A DNA stretch of 51,693 bases, from positions 1 through 51,693 of the forward strand of contig CAVIUA010000045.1 of the NCBI GenBank assembly GCA_963645945.1, given 5' to 3'. Origin of the DNA: a bacterium (GTDB lineage: Bacteria > Bacillota_I > Bacilli_A > RF39 > UBA660). The notes under the pieces were generated by a model. That model worked only from the letters and a program-made list of their open reading frames with translations, was not told the origin of the DNA and ran no database searches. The translations under genes and the position numbers were made by a program. Below, piece by piece: positions 5 to 19,156 of the stretch. How positions within the stretch are numbered: position 1 is the stretch's first letter; the number at the start of each line of letters is the position of its first letter.

Positions 5-26
5 AATTATTTCCCGGGAAATAATT
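5..26. promoter_or_regulatory. Noc-binding-site (NBS) type palindrome, perfect
   Basis: 22-bp perfect palindrome AATTATTTCCCGGGAAATAATT. The core at 8-23, TATTTCCCGGGAAATA, contains the published B. subtilis NBS core ATTTCCCGGGAAAT without mismatch. The GC-rich centre stands out in an AT-rich spacer. Confidence 0.8.
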
Positions 27-191
27 CAGATGAATTATAAAGTAAATTTGCATATGATCAGAAAATTAAAATATATTAATATGGTATTACACTTATAAAT
101 TTTAAAGAACTAAATTTTAATTTTTTGCATTTTTAAACAACAATAATTCATTATTTAATATTAAACATTACTATTAAATTATAAATTTGCT

Positions 192-209
192 ATGTTTCAC
201 GTGAAACAT
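192..209. promoter_or_regulatory. parS (Spo0J/ParB loading site), perfect
   Basis: 18-bp perfect palindrome ATGTTTCACGTGAAACAT. The core at 193-208, TGTTTCACGTGAAACA, equals the Firmicute parS consensus TGTTNCACGTGAAACA. Confidence 0.85.
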
Positions 210-246
210 TAAATAATTAAATAAATGAAATAAATCCAGTTATCAA

Positions 247-268
247 AATCATTTCCTAGAAAATAATT
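247..268. promoter_or_regulatory. Degenerate NBS-like palindrome
   Basis: AATCATTTCCTAGAAAATAATT. The core at 250-265 matches TATTTCCCGGGAAATA at 12 of 16 positions and shares the AAT..ATTTCC / AAATAATT flanks of the perfect copies. It lies 37 nt after the parS at 192-209. Confidence 0.4.
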
Positions 269-371
269 TAAACAATTAGCAATAAAAAATACGTATCGTG
301 TAAAAACTAAAAGACATATAAATTAAGTGCAATTATTAATATAGTAAAAGCTAAATTAATAAATTGATATC

Positions 372-391
372 AATGTTTCACGTGAAACATT
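372..391. promoter_or_regulatory. parS (Spo0J/ParB loading site), perfect
   Basis: 20-bp perfect palindrome AATGTTTCACGTGAAACATT. The core at 374-389 is TGTTTCACGTGAAACA. Confidence 0.85.
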
Positions 392-428
392 ACGATTTTA
401 CTAAACAAATAGGTAAAAATACACATGT

Positions 429-452
429 AAATTATTTCCCGGGAAATAATTT
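429..452. promoter_or_regulatory. Noc-binding-site (NBS) type palindrome, perfect
   Basis: 24-bp perfect palindrome AAATTATTTCCCGGGAAATAATTT. The core at 433-448 is TATTTCCCGGGAAATA. It lies 37 nt after the parS at 372-391. Confidence 0.8.
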
Positions 453-13288: not shown

Positions 13289-15148
13289 ATGAAATATGAA
13301 GTAATAGTAGTAGGTGGAGGTCATGCAGGATGTGAAGCTTCTTTAGCGACAGCACGTCTTGGACATAAAACCCTATTAATAACAGGAAATATAAAAAATA
13401 TTGCTGATATGCCATGTAATCCATCTATCGGTGGTCCTGCTAAAGGAATAGTTGTTCGTGAAATCGACGCACTAGGTGGCGAAATGGGAAGAAATGCCGA
13501 CAAAGCCACATTACAAATAAAGATGTTAAATACAAAAAAAGGTCCAGCAGTTCAAGCCTTAAGAGCTCAAGCCGATAAAGTAACTTATCCAAAAGAAATG
13601 TTAAAAACACTAAATAGTGAAGAAAATCTAGAAATAAAAGAAGCCATGGTAGAAGATTTAATCGTAACAGATGGCAAAATACAAGGAGTAATACTTGCCG
13701 ATGGAACAAAAATAAACTCTGATGCCGTAATTCTAACAACAGGAACATACCTACGTTCCGTAGTCCTAACTGGATCACAAAAAACACCATCTGGACCAAA
13801 AGGAGAAAAAGAATCTAAATACTTAAGTACAAAATTGAAAGATTTAGGATTCAAAATACTTCGTTTAAAAACAGGAACTCCACCTAGAATAGAAAAATCA
13901 TCAATTGATTATACAAAAACATCAATAGAGTCAGGAGATGATGAAGAATTAACATTCTCTTTTGATAATAAAGCTTATTATGACTACAAAAATCAAATAG
14001 ACTGTCATTTAATCTATACAACACCAGAAACACATAAAATAATAAAAGAACACTTAAAAGAATCAAGTATGTATGGTGGATATGTAGAAGGAGTAGGTCC
14101 AAGATATTGTCCATCTATAGAAGATAAAGTAGTAAGATTTAGTGATAAAGAAAGACATCAATTATTTTTAGAGCCAGAAAGTATTTATTATGATGACATC
14201 TACTTACAAGGTTTTTCAACAAGTATGCCACACAATATTCAAGAATTAATGGTTCATAGTTTACCAGGATTAGAACATGCCAAAATATTAAAATATGCCT
14301 ATGCCATTGAATATGACGCCATCGATTCAAAGCAATTAAAAAGGTCATTAGAAACAAAACTAATCGAAGGATTATATACAGCAGGACAAATTAATGGAAC
14401 ATCAGGCTATGAAGAAGCTGCAGGACAAGGATTAATTGCTGGAATCAATGCTTCCTTAAAATTATCTGGAAAAGACCCATTAATATTAAAAAGAAATGAA
14501 TCATACATTGGAGTTTTAATAGATGACTTAGTAACTAAAGGCGTAAAAGATCCTTATCGTTTACTAACATCAAGAGCAGAGTACAGATTACTCCTAAGAC
14601 ATGATAATGCCGATATCAGACTAAGAAAATATGGTCATGATGTAGGTTTAATATCAGAAGAAAAGTACCAACAATTTGAACAAAAATTAAAAGATATAGA
14701 TAACTTATTTGAACTTCTAAAAGAAACTAGAATTACACCAAAACAACAAACAAATGATTATATAATTTCCATTGGCTCAACACCATTAAAAGATGGTATG
14801 TCACTATATGACTTTTTAAAAAGACCAGAAATTAAAATCGACGATTTAGAACATTTTGTTGATATGCCATACTCAAAAGAAGTAAAAGAACAGGTTGAAA
14901 TAAACATTAAGTATGAAGGATACATAAAAAAATCAAACAAAGAAGCTGAAAAAATGCTATCCTTAGAAGAGAAAATCATTCCAGAGACAATTGACTATGA
15001 CAAAATACCTAACTTAGCTAGTGAAGCAAGACAAAAATTATCAGAAATCAAACCAACAACCATTGGTCAGGCAACAAGAATATCCGGTGTAAACCCAGCA
15101 GATATATCAATACTAATGGTATATATAAGAAGGAATAAACATGAATAA
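13289..15148 (+). CDS. mnmG: tRNA uridine 5-carboxymethylaminomethyl modification enzyme MnmG
   Basis: Start [17 protein letters not shown] (FAD dinucleotide fold). It also contains [12 protein letters not shown] and [17 protein letters not shown]. Confidence 0.96.
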
Positions 15149-15779
15149 AGAACATTTTATTGTAGAAACAAAGAAATTAGGAATCAATTTAACAGAAGAA
15201 CAATTAAATAAATTAGATCAGTTTTATAATTTATTAATTGAATGGAATGAAAAAATTAATTTAACAAGAATAACAACCAAAGAAGATGTATATTTAAAAC
15301 ACTTTTATGATAGCTTAACTATAGCAAAAGTCATAGATTTATCAACAAAAGAGACCTTATGTGATGTAGGAACAGGTGCTGGATTTCCAGGAATAGTATT
15401 AAAAATAGTATATCCAAATTTAAAAATAACTTTGGTAGATGCCTTACAAAAAAGAGTAAATTATTTAAATACTATTATAAAAGACTTACAATTAGAAAAT
15501 ATTCAAACTATTCATACCCGTGGTGAAGACCTTCATGATAAATATGATGTAGTAACCGCAAGAGCCGTAGCGAACATTGAAAAATTACTAAAATACACAA
15601 TGCATTTAGTAAATAATACAGGCGTATTTGTTGCTATGAAAGGAAATGTAGATAATGAATTAACACCTGAAATAGAAAATAAAATCTCAAAAAAATATCA
15701 AATATTAAAAATAGCTAAATTTGAATTACCTATAGAAAATAGTCAAAGAAGTTTAATTGTCATTAAAAACAAAAAGTAA
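15141..15779 (+). CDS. rsmG: 16S rRNA m7G527 methyltransferase RsmG
   Basis: 212 aa. It has the SAM motif [15 protein letters not shown] and the conserved NLT.I....V...HF.DSL. It lies after mnmG. Confidence 0.92.
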
Positions 15780-16010: not shown

Positions 16011-16039
16011 ATTGAAAGATTTGACAAACTAAGATATAA
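16011..16039 (+). promoter_or_regulatory. Sigma-A-type promoter of the noc-like gene
   Basis: TTGAAA at 16011-16016, a 17-nt spacer, and TATAAT at 16034-16039, 35 nt upstream of the ATG. Confidence 0.55.
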
Positions 16040-16073
16040 TATAATAGATAAAGAATAAAGCGAGGGATGCAAA

Positions 16074-17384
16074 ATGAATACAGAAACAAAAGACGAAGTT
16101 GTTTATTTATATTTAGATGACATAATTCCAAATCGTTTTCAACCAAGAGAAGTATTTGACGAAAAAGCACTAAGAGAATTAGCAGTTTCAATTAAAGAAC
16201 ATGGTGTAATTCAGCCAATAATCGTACGTCGTGTAAACGGAAAATATGAAATAATTGCTGGAGAACGTCGATATAAAGCATCAGCATTAGCTGGTATGAC
16301 AAAAATCCCTGCTATTATAAGAGATTTAGACGATAAAGAAAGTTCAAAAGTAGCTTTACTTGAAAACCTACAAAGAAAAAATCTTAATCCAATAGAGGAA
16401 GCTAGAACATATCAAAAAATTCTTGAAATAGATCAAATGACTCAAGATGAATTAGCCAAAACAATGGGTAAGAGTCAGTCTGCAGTAGCAAACAAATTAA
16501 GATTATTATCATTATCAGATGAAGTTCAAGATTCATTATTGAAAGAACAAATTTCCGAAAGACATGCTAGAGCCTTATTAAATATTTCAGATGCTAAGAA
16601 GCAAAAAGAAATGTTAAAAAAAGTAATAAGTAATAAAATGACAGTAAGAACATTGGAAGAGGAGATATCAAAAATGAACGGAACGCCAGCAAATGAAAAT
16701 ATTCAGTCTGTAAGAACAACATTAACAAATAATGCTACACCTATAATGCCAACAACAGATATGCCAGAAGATATGTCAAATTATGGAAAAGTAACAATAG
16801 CTCCACCAATAGAAAACGGTCCAGCTAGTAAAGAACAAAAATTTATCAACTATGGTGAAATTGATAAAGAAGCCGTAGAAGAACCTAAAAACTCATATTA
16901 TAATCAAGTTGCAGTTCAACCAGTTGATGTAAATACAATAAAAGAACAAGCCATTGATATAACACCAGGAAATGATACACCATCAGCTGACTTAGATAAT
17001 TTATTAAATATTCAAGCACCAGCAAGTAGCAAATATCCTCATGTAAAAGCTCGTCCAGCACAAGATTATATGACACCAGCTGAAGCAATTGTTAAAGGAG
17101 ATGCCGAAGCTCCTGATGAGTCAATTAAAGATTACTTCCAAATGCCTAATATCAAAGCAACAGACTTTTCACAAGGAGTAGCAGCAGTGCCTGCTCAACA
17201 GTCAATTTCAAGTATCATGAGTAATCCAAACCCAGTTCAAAATACTGGTGCTTATACAACAGAAGAGATTATGGCTAAAATTAGAGACGTAGTAAAAGAC
17301 ATAGAAAGTCATGGTAACAAAATTACTTTTGATGAAATGAATTTTGCAACAGCTTATCAAGTAATCATAAAAGTAGATAAATAA
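16074..17384 (+). CDS. noc: Noc-type ParB-family paralogue with a long low-complexity insertion
   Basis: 436 aa. ParB N-domain (IIPNRFQPR, GVIQPIIVR, IIAGERRYKA, the GERR arginine patch). The HTH region GKSQSAVANKLRLLSLS...SERHARAL has Q, K and R at positions reported as Noc-specific, against R, T/H and G in ParB. It is in the position between rsmG and soj, as for B. subtilis noc. Matching NBS palindromes occur in this window. Confidence 0.75.
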   Translation: MNTETKDEVVYLYLDDIIPNRFQPREVFDEKALRELAVSIKEHGVIQPIIVRRVNGKYEIIAGERRYKASALAGMTKIPAIIRDLDDKESSKVALLENLQRKNLNPIEEARTYQKILEIDQMTQDELAKTMGKSQSAVANKLRLLSLSDEVQDSLLKEQISERHARALLNISDAKKQKEMLKKVISNKMTVRTLEEEISKMNGTPANENIQSVRTTLTNNATPIMPTTDMPEDMSNYGKVTIAPPIENGPASKEQKFINYGEIDKEAVEEPKNSYYNQVAVQPVDVNTIKEQAIDITPGNDTPSADLDNLLNIQAPASSKYPHVKARPAQDYMTPAEAIVKGDAEAPDESIKDYFQMPNIKATDFSQGVAAVPAQQSISSIMSNPNPVQNTGAYTTEEIMAKIRDVVKDIESHGNKITFDEMNFATAYQVIIKVDK

Positions 17385-17478: not shown

Positions 17479-18267
17479 ATGGGAAAGGTTATATCATTAG
17501 TAAATCAAAAAGGTGGAGTAGGAAAAACAACGACAAGTATCAATCTTTCTGCATCACTAGCAGTATTAGGGAAAAATGTTTTATTAATAGATTTAGATCC
17601 TCAAGGTAATACAACTACTGGTGTAGGAATAAATAAGGGAGAAATTGAACGTAGTATATATGATGTTTTAATAGACGAATGTACAATAACAGAAGCTATT
17701 ATCAAAACAAAATATAAAAACTTATATGTTTTACCTGCAACAATAAATTTAGCCGGAATTGATATTGAATTAGTAGAAAAAAGTAAACAAGAAAATGGTT
17801 TTCAAAAAGGTGAGCAATTAAAAAGACATATAGAAGGAATTAAAGATAGTTTTGATTATATAATAATAGACTGTCCACCTTCTTTAGGGGTTATAACAAC
17901 AAATGCATTAACAGCTTCTAACTCGGTTATAATACCAGTACAATGTGAATTCTTTGCTCTAGAAGGAATAACACAGCTGTTAAAAACTATTATGTTAGCA
18001 CAAAAAACATTAAATCCAGACTTAGTAATCGAAGGTGTTTTACTAACTATGTTAGATTCTAGAACAAATTTAGGTTTTGAAGTAGTAGAAGATATCAGAA
18101 AATTCTTTAAAGAAAAAGTATACAACACAATAATTCCAAGATTAGTTAGATTAACAGAGGCTCCATCACACGGAGAGCCTATAATAGTTTATGATCCAAA
18201 AAGTAGAGGATCAGAAGCTTATATAAATTTAGCAAAGGAAGTGATTGCGAGAAATGGAAACAACTAA
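17479..18267 (+). CDS. soj: ParA/Soj chromosome partitioning ATPase
   Basis: 262 aa. It has the deviant Walker A NQKGGVGKTTT and also contains DLDPQGN and IIDCPPSLG. Confidence 0.93.
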   Translation: MGKVISLVNQKGGVGKTTTSINLSASLAVLGKNVLLIDLDPQGNTTTGVGINKGEIERSIYDVLIDECTITEAIIKTKYKNLYVLPATINLAGIDIELVEKSKQENGFQKGEQLKRHIEGIKDSFDYIIIDCPPSLGVITTNALTASNSVIIPVQCEFFALEGITQLLKTIMLAQKTLNPDLVIEGVLLTMLDSRTNLGFEVVEDIRKFFKEKVYNTIIPRLVRLTEAPSHGEPIIVYDPKSRGSEAYINLAKEVIARNGNN

Positions 18268-19156
18268 TAACAATAAAAGAAGAGCTTTAGGTAGAGGATT
18301 AGAAGAATTATTTTATAATGAGCCAATTGATTACAACAAAGTAGAAGAAAAAATATTAACAGAAACATCAAAAGATGAAATTAAAATGGTAAAAATAGAT
18401 GAATTAAGAAGTAATCCATACCAACCAAGAAAAGTATTTGATGAAACAGCACTTCAAGAATTAGCAGCCTCAATCAAGGAACACGGTGTATTTCAACCTA
18501 TAATAATAAAAAAAAGTATTAAAGGATACGAAATAATAGCCGGAGAAAGAAGAGTAAAGGCCTCAAAACTAGCAGGTTTAGACGAAATACCAGCAATAAT
18601 TCGTGATTTTTCAGATGATGAAATGATGGAAATTGCTCTACTTGAAAACTTACAAAGAGAAAATTTAAATGCTATAGAAGAAGCAAATGCTTACAAAAAA
18701 TTACTAGAAACATTACAATTAACTCAAGAACAACTATCAAATAGACTAGGTAAAAGTAGAAGTCATATCACAAATATGATAGGTCTATTAAATTTACCAG
18801 AAGAAGTACAAAAACTACTTAGTAGTAAAGAAATAAGTGCTGGACATGCAAGAATAATAAGCAAACTAGAAAATGAAGAGCAACAAATAAGTCTTGCTAA
18901 AAAAGTAGTAGATGAAGGACTAAGTGTTAGACAACTAGAAGATATTACTCATTCTAATGAAAAGTTCTTAAGAGTACATGAAATTAAAAGAAGAACAAAA
19001 GAGACAAGTTCAGAATATGTATATTTAGAAGAAGAACTATGTGAAAAATTAGGTACAAAAGTAAAAATTAAAACAAATAAAATAGAAATCAGTTTTGTTA
19101 ACGGAAATGATCTAAACAGGCTATTAGAAATAATGAATTTAGAATCAAGGAGGTAA
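18254..19156 (+). CDS. spo0J: ParB/Spo0J chromosome partitioning protein
   Basis: Start METTNNNKRRALGRGLEELF, the ParA-interacting motif. It contains GERR, and the HTH region GKSRSHITNMIGLLNLP...SAGHARII has ParB-type R and G specificity residues. It overlaps the soj stop by 14 nt. Confidence 0.9.
   Translation: METTNNNKRRALGRGLEELFYNEPIDYNKVEEKILTETSKDEIKMVKIDELRSNPYQPRKVFDETALQELAASIKEHGVFQPIIIKKSIKGYEIIAGERRVKASKLAGLDEIPAIIRDFSDDEMMEIALLENLQRENLNAIEEANAYKKLLETLQLTQEQLSNRLGKSRSHITNMIGLLNLPEEVQKLLSSKEISAGHARIISKLENEEQQISLAKKVVDEGLSVRQLEDITHSNEKFLRVHEIKRRTKETSSEYVYLEEELCEKLGTKVKIKTNKIEISFVNGNDLNRLLEIMNLESRR

Follow-up and report, generated by a model that had tools for sequence, protein, structure and literature searches.

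How does a Noc protein act when it lacks the helix by which B. subtilis Noc reaches the membrane? According to the current model, division is blocked because Noc, bound at sites spread over the chromosome, holds DNA at the membrane by its N-terminal helix. The question is raised by a gene on a 51,693-nucleotide stretch (positions 1 to 51,693 of contig CAVIUA010000045.1, assembly GCA_963645945.1; the whole stretch is called the window below) from a bacterium that GTDB places in RF39, UBA660. The gene lies at 16074..17384 on the + strand, as do all genes and protein features of the window given with coordinates below, and is an open reading frame (ORF) of 436 amino acids (aa) plus stop, as an earlier annotation of the sequence (the original prediction) had described it. 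That annotation took the product for a Noc-type ParB paralogue without the membrane helix and proposed a mechanistic variant of nucleoid occlusion. Our analysis points elsewhere for the function: we consider it probable, though far from settled, that the gene encodes a Noc-lineage ParB-type cytidine triphosphate (CTP) clamp that acts at the centromere and not over the whole nucleoid.

The window gene belongs to the Noc lineage

The lineage was assessed with a maximum-likelihood tree of the N-domain plus the helix-turn-helix (HTH) domain, which included 13 Noc proteins of the query family, their 13 Spo0J counterparts, and 18 Noc and 7 ParB proteins of other Bacilli families. ParB and Noc were split with support of 100/99, and the query Noc clade (100/98) fell on the Noc side as the sister of the Noc proteins of the other sampled Bacilli families (95/81). 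The alignment with Noc and ParB sets that the original prediction had proposed as a check thus placed the protein with Noc. The best matches in the PDB were also Noc structures (7nfu, 7ng0 and 7ol9): Geobacillus thermoleovorans Noc 7nfu came first with 211 bits, and Bacillus subtilis Noc 7ol9 scored 186 bits, compared with 183 bits for Helicobacter pylori ParB (4umk) and 169 bits for B. subtilis Spo0J (6sdk). On these sequence comparisons, the window gene is of the Noc lineage and not of the ParB lineage; the tree, the PDB ranking and the cognate sites described below all agree with the Noc-type paralogue first suggested.

The domain organization is that of the ParB/Noc family. The N-terminal CTP-binding domain covers residues 8-100 (16095..16373; Pfam PF02195, E = 1.6e-36, with the ParB_N match itself at residues 10-100) and includes the segments GERRYKA, IQPIIVR and ENLQRKNL, all invariant in the orthologue alignment. 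The HTH DNA-binding domain follows at residues 102-202 (16377..16679; PF17762, HTH_ParB, E = 2.3e-34) and reads GKSQSAVANKLRLLSLS...SERHARAL. No Pfam or NCBIfam match was found past residue 202, residues 203-393 included. Against the NCBIfam Noc model TIGR04285, the protein scored 284 bits over profile positions 1-205, whereas the neighbouring Spo0J scored 244 bits. The score is below the curated cut-off of 315 bits, even after the long linker between the HTH and the C-terminus had been removed in silico (297 bits), but the linker-less sequence matched the profile end to end, over positions 1-255 of 255. Although an NCBIfam scan of the isolated C-terminal domain gave no match, the last 43 residues can be assigned as the Noc-type C-terminal dimerisation domain (residues 394-436, 17253..17381), because the linker-less sequence matches the whole profile. 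AlphaFold predicts a helix at 396-412 and strands at 417-423 and 428-434 in this segment, with a predicted local distance difference test score (pLDDT) of 74-87; the short C-terminal domain postulated beyond the insertion is therefore present as a predicted fold of one helix and two strands.

Four positions are reported to set the specificity of ParB and Noc for their sites, with Gln reading base 1 and Arg reading base 6 (Jalal et al., PMC7383237). At these positions the HTH domain of the window protein has the residues of a protein that reads the Noc-binding site (NBS): Q135, K141, S146 and R163, corresponding to 173, 179, 184 and 201 in Caulobacter ParB numbering (mapping per PMC7383237). 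That three of the four are Noc-like, as had been claimed, was confirmed, but the description of S146 as intermediate was not. Among the sampled Noc proteins of other Bacilli families, position 184 is mostly Asn and otherwise Ser, Lys, Gln, Asp or Gly, so Ser at this position is not unusual, and a single Lys at 179 or 184 is enough for NBS reading (PMC7383237). A preference for parS over NBS, which the original prediction had named as evidence against itself, is not what these residues suggest, since all are of the NBS type. Nor does the protein have the features of a canonical ParB, given Q135 and R163 at the reading positions and the absence of the ParA-binding peptide LG(R/K)GL, which is found only in the neighbouring Spo0J.

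The membrane helix is missing throughout the clade

An N-terminal amphipathic helix was present in every Noc homologue examined by Adams et al. (PMC4331003), and its removal inactivates B. subtilis Noc. Residues 1-11 of the window Noc (MNTETKDEVVY) have a helical hydrophobic moment of 0.08 and a charge of -2, compared with 0.50 and +2 for residues 1-11 of B. subtilis Noc. Aligned with G. thermoleovorans Noc, the window protein has its residue 4 opposite residue 23; aligned with B. subtilis Noc, its residue 5 falls opposite residue 26. Helix alpha2 is thus missing along with the amphipathic helix alpha1. Most of the sampled Noc proteins of other families begin with an M-x-(L/I)-F-type peptide.

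The short N-terminus is not a matter of a misplaced start codon. Upstream of the gene, the stretch 16012..16067 contains a promoter-like TTGAAA-17-TATAAT element (16012-16040, called by consensus match only), an in-frame TAA (16056-16058) and an element resembling a ribosome-binding site, GAGGGA (16062-16067), 6 nt ahead of the ATG. The TAA lies 18 nt upstream of the ATG and excludes a longer N-terminus, and the five codons in between (AGC GAG GGA TGC AAA) hold no alternative start codon. A scan of one genome per species, based on a match to the clade-specific N-terminal peptide, gave 370 loci encoding relatives of the window Noc, of which 71 were parsed. The proteins from these 71 loci start with M-x-x-(E/D)-x-K-D-E-V-V, and apart from a single case the open frame extends 0-14 codons further upstream; relatives with a shorter linker (297-359 aa) have the same start. 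Helix loss is therefore a trait of the clade and not a start-codon error. The stop codon and short acidic start reported originally were both found, and the possibility that the true start lies elsewhere was ruled out by the in-frame stop together with the 71 orthologous starts.

We also scanned the whole protein for hydrophobic moment and found no cationic amphipathic stretch outside the N-terminus. The windows of highest moment fall in the folded domains, and those of the linker with a moment of at least 0.47 are all net negative, which speaks against an amphipathic helix elsewhere in the protein. The predicted absence of the helix, for which such an analysis had been suggested, therefore holds for this genome and, at the N-terminus, for the 71 related species.

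Helix loss is not unique to this clade, because helix-less Noc proteins of canonical length (251-255 aa) that start directly at the ParB domain occur in two other families, f5 (loci L113 and L114) and f11 (L117 and L118). NBS-like sites are dispersed in the f5 genomes and number at most one in the f11 genomes. A general rule that helix loss predicts clustered NBS was accordingly rejected on the f5 proteins, whose NBS-like sites are dispersed.

NBS are built into the parS array near the origin

The draft genome (1.32 Mb, 27.6% G+C, 48 contigs, 92.5% complete) holds exactly five perfect 16-bp NBS (TATTTCCCGGGAAATA) and five perfect 16-bp parS, with no match to the reversed control patterns. Two of the NBS are those originally reported in the window at 8-23 and 433-448; both proved to be perfect 16-bp sites, and none of 100 shuffles reached two matches to the 14-bp core. 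They belong to a composite array, whose window part (8..448) consists of an NBS at 8-23, parS at 193-208, a degenerate NBS at ~250-265, parS at 374-389 and an NBS at 433-448. The array continues at the end of another contig, C48, with parS at 83921, NBS at 83979, parS at 84068, parS at 84354 and NBS at 84411. The two contig ends, which together carry all ten perfect sites, adjoin in the chromosome, because relatives with contiguous assemblies show the order gyrB, gyrA, array, tadA, dnaX, a ybaB-like gene and recR. All sites lie in AT-rich non-coding DNA except the fifth perfect NBS, which is inside dnaX (C48:82184-82199) and is not interleaved with parS. The contig break falls within the array, so the number of sites given here for the genome is a minimum. 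The array lies ~8-10 kb from oriC, and the NBS cluster extends over ~3 kb.

In the genus, the NBS inside dnaX, ~1.7-2 kb from the array, has been retained at its position by most genomes (L085:7027-7042 and L086:6866-6881 are two instances).

The pairing of the two kinds of sites is a regular feature of the clade. In the query genus, most NBS lie ~58 bp from a parS. Strict tandem arrays were found in two more distant clade members, one with the composition (parS-NBS)x6 and an 84-bp period (L088:3724-4207), the other with (parS-NBS)x4 and a 62-63 bp period (L089:2695-2934), so that the array seems to grow by duplication of the parS-NBS pair as a single unit. Clustered NBS, two to six per genome, were present in 19 of the 20 other genus genomes and in three of the four other family genera; among more distant clade members they were present in 28 of 30, and there they lie 16-31 kb from noc wherever the contigs permit measurement. 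In the other Noc-bearing Bacilli families, by contrast, NBS-like sites (up to two mismatches, the threshold of the search) were spread over many contigs or chromosome positions. B. subtilis has ~70 NBS around most of its chromosome (PMC4331003), and Staphylococcus aureus has 41 Noc loci, each spreading over 8-10 kb (PMC5540599).

The many scattered NBS, depleted at the terminus, of a genome-wide occlusion system were thus not seen; the sites form one origin-proximal cluster, as they do across the clade. Because no NBS were found elsewhere in the genome, occlusion across the whole chromosome, as in Bacillus, is unlikely, and because the NBS are few and adjoin parS near the origin, a role at the centromere, beside that of ParB, is probable. 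A centromere or origin role fits the site distribution better than genome-wide nucleoid occlusion, and the mechanistic variant of occlusion envisaged originally is not supported.

The same distribution bears on a role in the control of replication initiation. S. aureus Noc restrains initiation (PMC5540599), the array lies near oriC, and Noc complexes spread over 8-10 kb (PMC5540599); the protein would then act from sites 8-10 kb from oriC. However, it is parS that the NBS accompany, not the DnaA-box clusters on either side of dnaA, and no NBS was found in the dnaA-flanking spacers. We therefore regard a regulator of replication initiation as quite unlikely.

Another family (f24) has a Noc of 675 aa (locus L116, genome G133). 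Its N-terminal peptide, core and C-terminal domain are normal, and a strongly acidic extension of ~400 aa comes after them. The five NBS-like sites of this genome all lie within ~40 kb around noc.

The acidic linker carries six conserved blocks

Where canonical Noc has a short K/R-rich basic linker followed by KGF.RD.R, the window Noc has an acidic disordered linker (residues 203-393, 16680..17252), as judged by its composition and its AlphaFold pLDDT. It is 191 aa long and A/P/N/T-rich, with an isoelectric point of 4.4 and a net charge of -12; among 71 orthologues it ranges from 163 to 258 aa and is always acidic (net charge -37 to -7). The pLDDT is mostly below 50, in line with the disorder for which a prediction had been advised, and only three short helices are predicted (286-292, 306-310 and 335-341). 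In an alignment of 56 species, the linker is only ~34% identical, yet six blocks are invariant or nearly so. Block 1 (residues 217-247, 16722..16814) reads P(I/L)xPT(T/A)D(M/L)P followed by NYGKVTIAPPIEN, with the family consensus P-T-T-D ... NYGKVTIAPP. Block 2 is KFINYGEID (256-264, 16839..16865), in which N259 is invariant and Y260, G261, E262 and I263 nearly so. Block 3, VDVNTIKEQAIDI (284-296, 16923..16961; consensus VDVxxIKxxAxDI), includes the first predicted helix, and block 5, YMTPAEAIVKGD (332-343, 17067..17102; consensus (Y/F)xTPAExIVKxD), the last. Block 4 is ADLDNLLNI (305-313, 16986..17012), with D308 and L311 invariant and a core, [LI]-D-x-L-L, that is retained in the shorter-linker relatives. 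Block 6 is DYFQMP (353-358, 17130..17147; consensus DYFxxP), with Y354 and F355 invariant.

The original view of this segment as a low-complexity insertion without a recognizable domain was therefore right as to the lack of any Pfam or NCBIfam domain, but simple low complexity does not describe a sequence with six conserved blocks. Because it bears conserved short motifs, the linker looks like an interaction surface, and the earlier suggestion to this effect appears likely to be correct, given also that one motif is common to an unrelated ATPase (see below). Six conserved blocks in an otherwise 34%-identical sequence, together with the recurrence of the block 1 motif in the ATPase tail, argue that the linker is functional.

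We considered whether one of the blocks could be a relocated membrane anchor, which would make the protein a canonical membrane-tethering Noc after all. The candidate is KFINYGEID, an invariant block that loosely resembles RFFGLGEKE of B. subtilis Noc. However, its helical hydrophobic moment is 0.13-0.19, which is not that of an amphipathic helix, whereas that of the B. subtilis Noc helix is ~0.5. AlphaFold places no helix there, N-Y-G is turn-like, the surroundings are acidic, and the sister motif NYGKV in block 1 runs into IAPP, which is non-helix-forming. A relocated anchor is therefore very improbable.

The long form is widespread. Proteins of 406-501 aa occur in the 71 species, and each of the ten genera sampled from the query family has open frames of 369-594 aa, so that the survey of orthologues recommended earlier speaks against an assembly artefact or a strain-specific expansion, the two trivial explanations that the original prediction had named; both were rejected. 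If the gene were a duplicate in decay, or a neutral one, with junk inserted, a TIGR04285 score under the cut-off (284 versus 315 bits) would fit. However, across the same 68 genomes the median identity of the Noc core was 87%, compared with 74% for the ParB core; these alignments thus show Noc to be the more tightly constrained of the two cores. In addition, the frames are intact in the 71 species, and both the cognate NBS and the linker motifs are conserved. These conservation data effectively refute a decaying duplicate.

A linker motif recurs in a HerA-type ATPase

Profiles of all six linker blocks were compared with the 3375 ORFs of the genome, and only block 1 gave a second significant match. 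The block 1 profile, built from Noc orthologues only, matched one other ORF (E = 1.2e-7), an 869-aa DUF87/HerA-type ATPase encoded between ftsY-ylxM and ffh (contig C10:30759-33365, + strand). The match falls in the disordered, N/S/P-rich C-terminal tail of the ATPase, which is ~290 aa long, includes DDYGSVRIAPPMENN and ends in the peptide MVPTTDKGIPLISIVE. The tail shares with the Noc linker the motifs (D/N)YGxVxIxPP and P-T-T-D, and its conserved C-terminal peptide is P.TD.G.PL(I/V)N(I/L)V(E/G). Within the genus the tail is hypervariable, whereas (D/E)YGxVx(I/V)xPP is kept in 14 of 18 genus orthologues (L150-L167). The motif was not found in the ATPase outside the query genus, the other family genera having either no tail or a tail without the motif, and the clue is thus a local one, confined to one genus. 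Since Noc and the ATPase are both DNA-handling proteins, a motif common to their disordered regions would most simply reflect a common binding partner.

Most genomes of the query family encode two HerA-type ATPase paralogues. In the present genome the second paralogue (42% identical; C31:37315-39051, + strand) lies just upstream of sepF (C31:39440) and divIVA (C31:39789).

Division and origin-anchoring context

The window noc sits between rsmG and soj-spo0J, in the order mnmE, mnmG, rsmG (15141-15779), noc (16074-17384), soj (17479-18267) and spo0J (18245-19156) on the + strand. The soj-spo0J/parB pair (17479..19156) was assigned from the ORF map and NCBIfam/Pfam matches; its Spo0J has the ParA-binding motif ALGRGLEELF and the parS-type residues R/M/N/G at the four specificity positions. 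Beyond an origin-like strand switch, dnaA, dnaN, a small ORF, recF, gyrB and gyrA follow on the - strand. Elsewhere, the genome encodes FtsZ, FtsA, SepF, DivIVA, MreB, MurA, MraY, Spo0A and SpoIIIE/FtsK homologues, which makes a cell wall probable and sporulation possible in this organism. A tblastn search of the 92.5%-complete draft gave no MinD homologue; only Soj matched.

This inventory bears on two further explanations. In the first, the protein would be an origin-anchored local division inhibitor that exerts occlusion only around the segregated origins, its linker motifs binding FtsZ, FtsA, SepF or a membrane protein, and it could substitute for the missing Min system by a logic analogous to that of MipZ-ParB in Caulobacter. 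The absence of a detectable MinD in a genome that has FtsZ, FtsA, SepF, DivIVA and MreB is consistent with this, as are the confinement of NBS to the origin region, the ancestral function of the family in division control (PMC4331003) and the position of a paralogue of the motif-sharing ATPase next to sepF-divIVA. However, none of the linker motifs was found to resemble the FtsZ C-terminal peptide (DFDIPAFLRDRNY) or a known divisome-binding peptide, the acidic linker has no membrane-binding element, and the lack of Min rests on an incomplete draft. We consider a local division inhibitor fairly unlikely.

In the second, the protein would tether the origin to the pole or septum through a partner such as DivIVA, during growth or sporulation, in the manner of RacA or RicO. 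The sites are origin-proximal only, DivIVA, Spo0A and SpoIIIE/FtsK homologues are available, and RacA and RicO provide a precedent for site-specific origin anchors (bioRxiv 10.64898/2026.03.06.710092). Nevertheless, the window Noc has no recognizable DivIVA-binding element, and the upstream promoter-like element resembles a housekeeping sigma-70-type promoter, not a sporulation promoter, although this is weak evidence. An origin tether of this kind is unlikely.

Discussion

The centromere reading, which we favour, can be put as follows. NBS would serve as the loading sites of Noc dimers, and the parS beside them as those of ParB dimers. With CTP, clamps of both kinds would shut around the DNA and slide along one shared stretch near the origin, giving a mixed nucleoprotein complex. 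Noc would do so without direct membrane binding, and the two long acidic linkers of each dimer could serve as a multivalent display of motifs, drawing one or more partner proteins to the area of the origin. The HerA/FtsK-superfamily ATPase that bears the same motif probably shares at least one of these partners. Candidate outputs are the positioning or anchoring of the origin, a local block to division near origins, and control of replication.

Several points weigh against this proposal. That the protein binds NBS, clamps DNA with CTP and does not bind the membrane are all deductions from the sequence. The assembly is a 92.5%-complete draft in 48 contigs, and the parS/NBS array spans a contig break. 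More degenerate NBS, beyond the two-mismatch threshold, could be present elsewhere on the chromosome. Helix loss alone does not imply origin restriction, as the helix-less f5 Noc proteins with their dispersed NBS-like sites illustrate. Finally, only one of the six linker motifs recurs elsewhere in the proteome, and in one genus only.

A bolder version, conceivable but doubtful, would make the parS-NBS units a genuinely bipartite centromere at which two paralogous CTP clamps are loaded side by side, and the anchor-less, origin-restricted Noc the ancestral state, a living intermediate between ParB and Noc. After duplication of parB, NBS specificity would have come first, with the protein still at the centromere; only later would the protein have gained its membrane helix and NBS have spread over the genome, giving the occlusion familiar from Bacillus.

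With respect to the membrane-tethering model of Noc, a very large group of uncultured, small-genome gut Bacilli (~370 species-level genomes matched the clade-specific N-terminal peptide) keeps a strongly constrained Noc without the helix or dispersed sites, and the building of NBS into the parS centromere would imply a second, undescribed job for Noc-type clamps. The clade also offers a natural system with two paralogous CTP clamps on one loading array, in which questions of mutual blocking, co-condensation and recruitment by the linker can be posed, and it bears on the origin of Noc from ParB. Neither a Noc with a long linker and no helix nor arrays that mix parS with NBS turned up in a full-text search of the literature, and a 2025 survey of the ParB-CTPase fold (PMC12704722) covers Noc in its canonical form only.

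Comparison with known systems

The window protein shares with the Noc proteins of B. subtilis, G. thermoleovorans and S. aureus (TIGR04285; 7nfu, 7ng0, 7ol9 and 6y93) its lineage in the tree, its gene position, a ParB-type CTP-binding N-domain, NBS-type residues, the identical 16-bp NBS palindrome, a Noc-type C-terminal domain and the lack of a ParA-binding motif. Unlike them, it has neither helix alpha1 nor helix alpha2, and an acidic disordered linker of ~190 aa with six motifs takes the place of the short basic one (K/R-rich, KGF.RD.R). In addition, its clade has two to six origin-proximal NBS per genome, whereas B. subtilis has ~70 and S. aureus 41 over most of the chromosome. With chromosomal ParB/Spo0J it would share the architecture of a CTP-gated clamp, and it has in common a small number of origin-proximal palindromes, located in the same array as the ParB sites; it differs in its NBS-type instead of parS-type residues, the absence of LG(R/K)GL, a different C-terminal domain and a far longer linker.

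Two further comparisons concern function. RacA of B. subtilis and RicO of S. aureus may be likened to it, by analogy only, as site-specific DNA binders with origin-proximally confined sites, but their folds are unrelated, and RacA uses DivIVA and RicO a C-terminal amphipathic helix, whereas the window Noc has no recognizable anchoring element. In MipZ-ParB of Caulobacter and KorB-KorA of RK2, as may be the case here, a ParB-family clamp is the platform by which a second activity reaches a particular stretch of DNA; unlike those systems, the present one has no MipZ or KorA homologue, and its putative platform is a second ParB paralogue with sites of its own.

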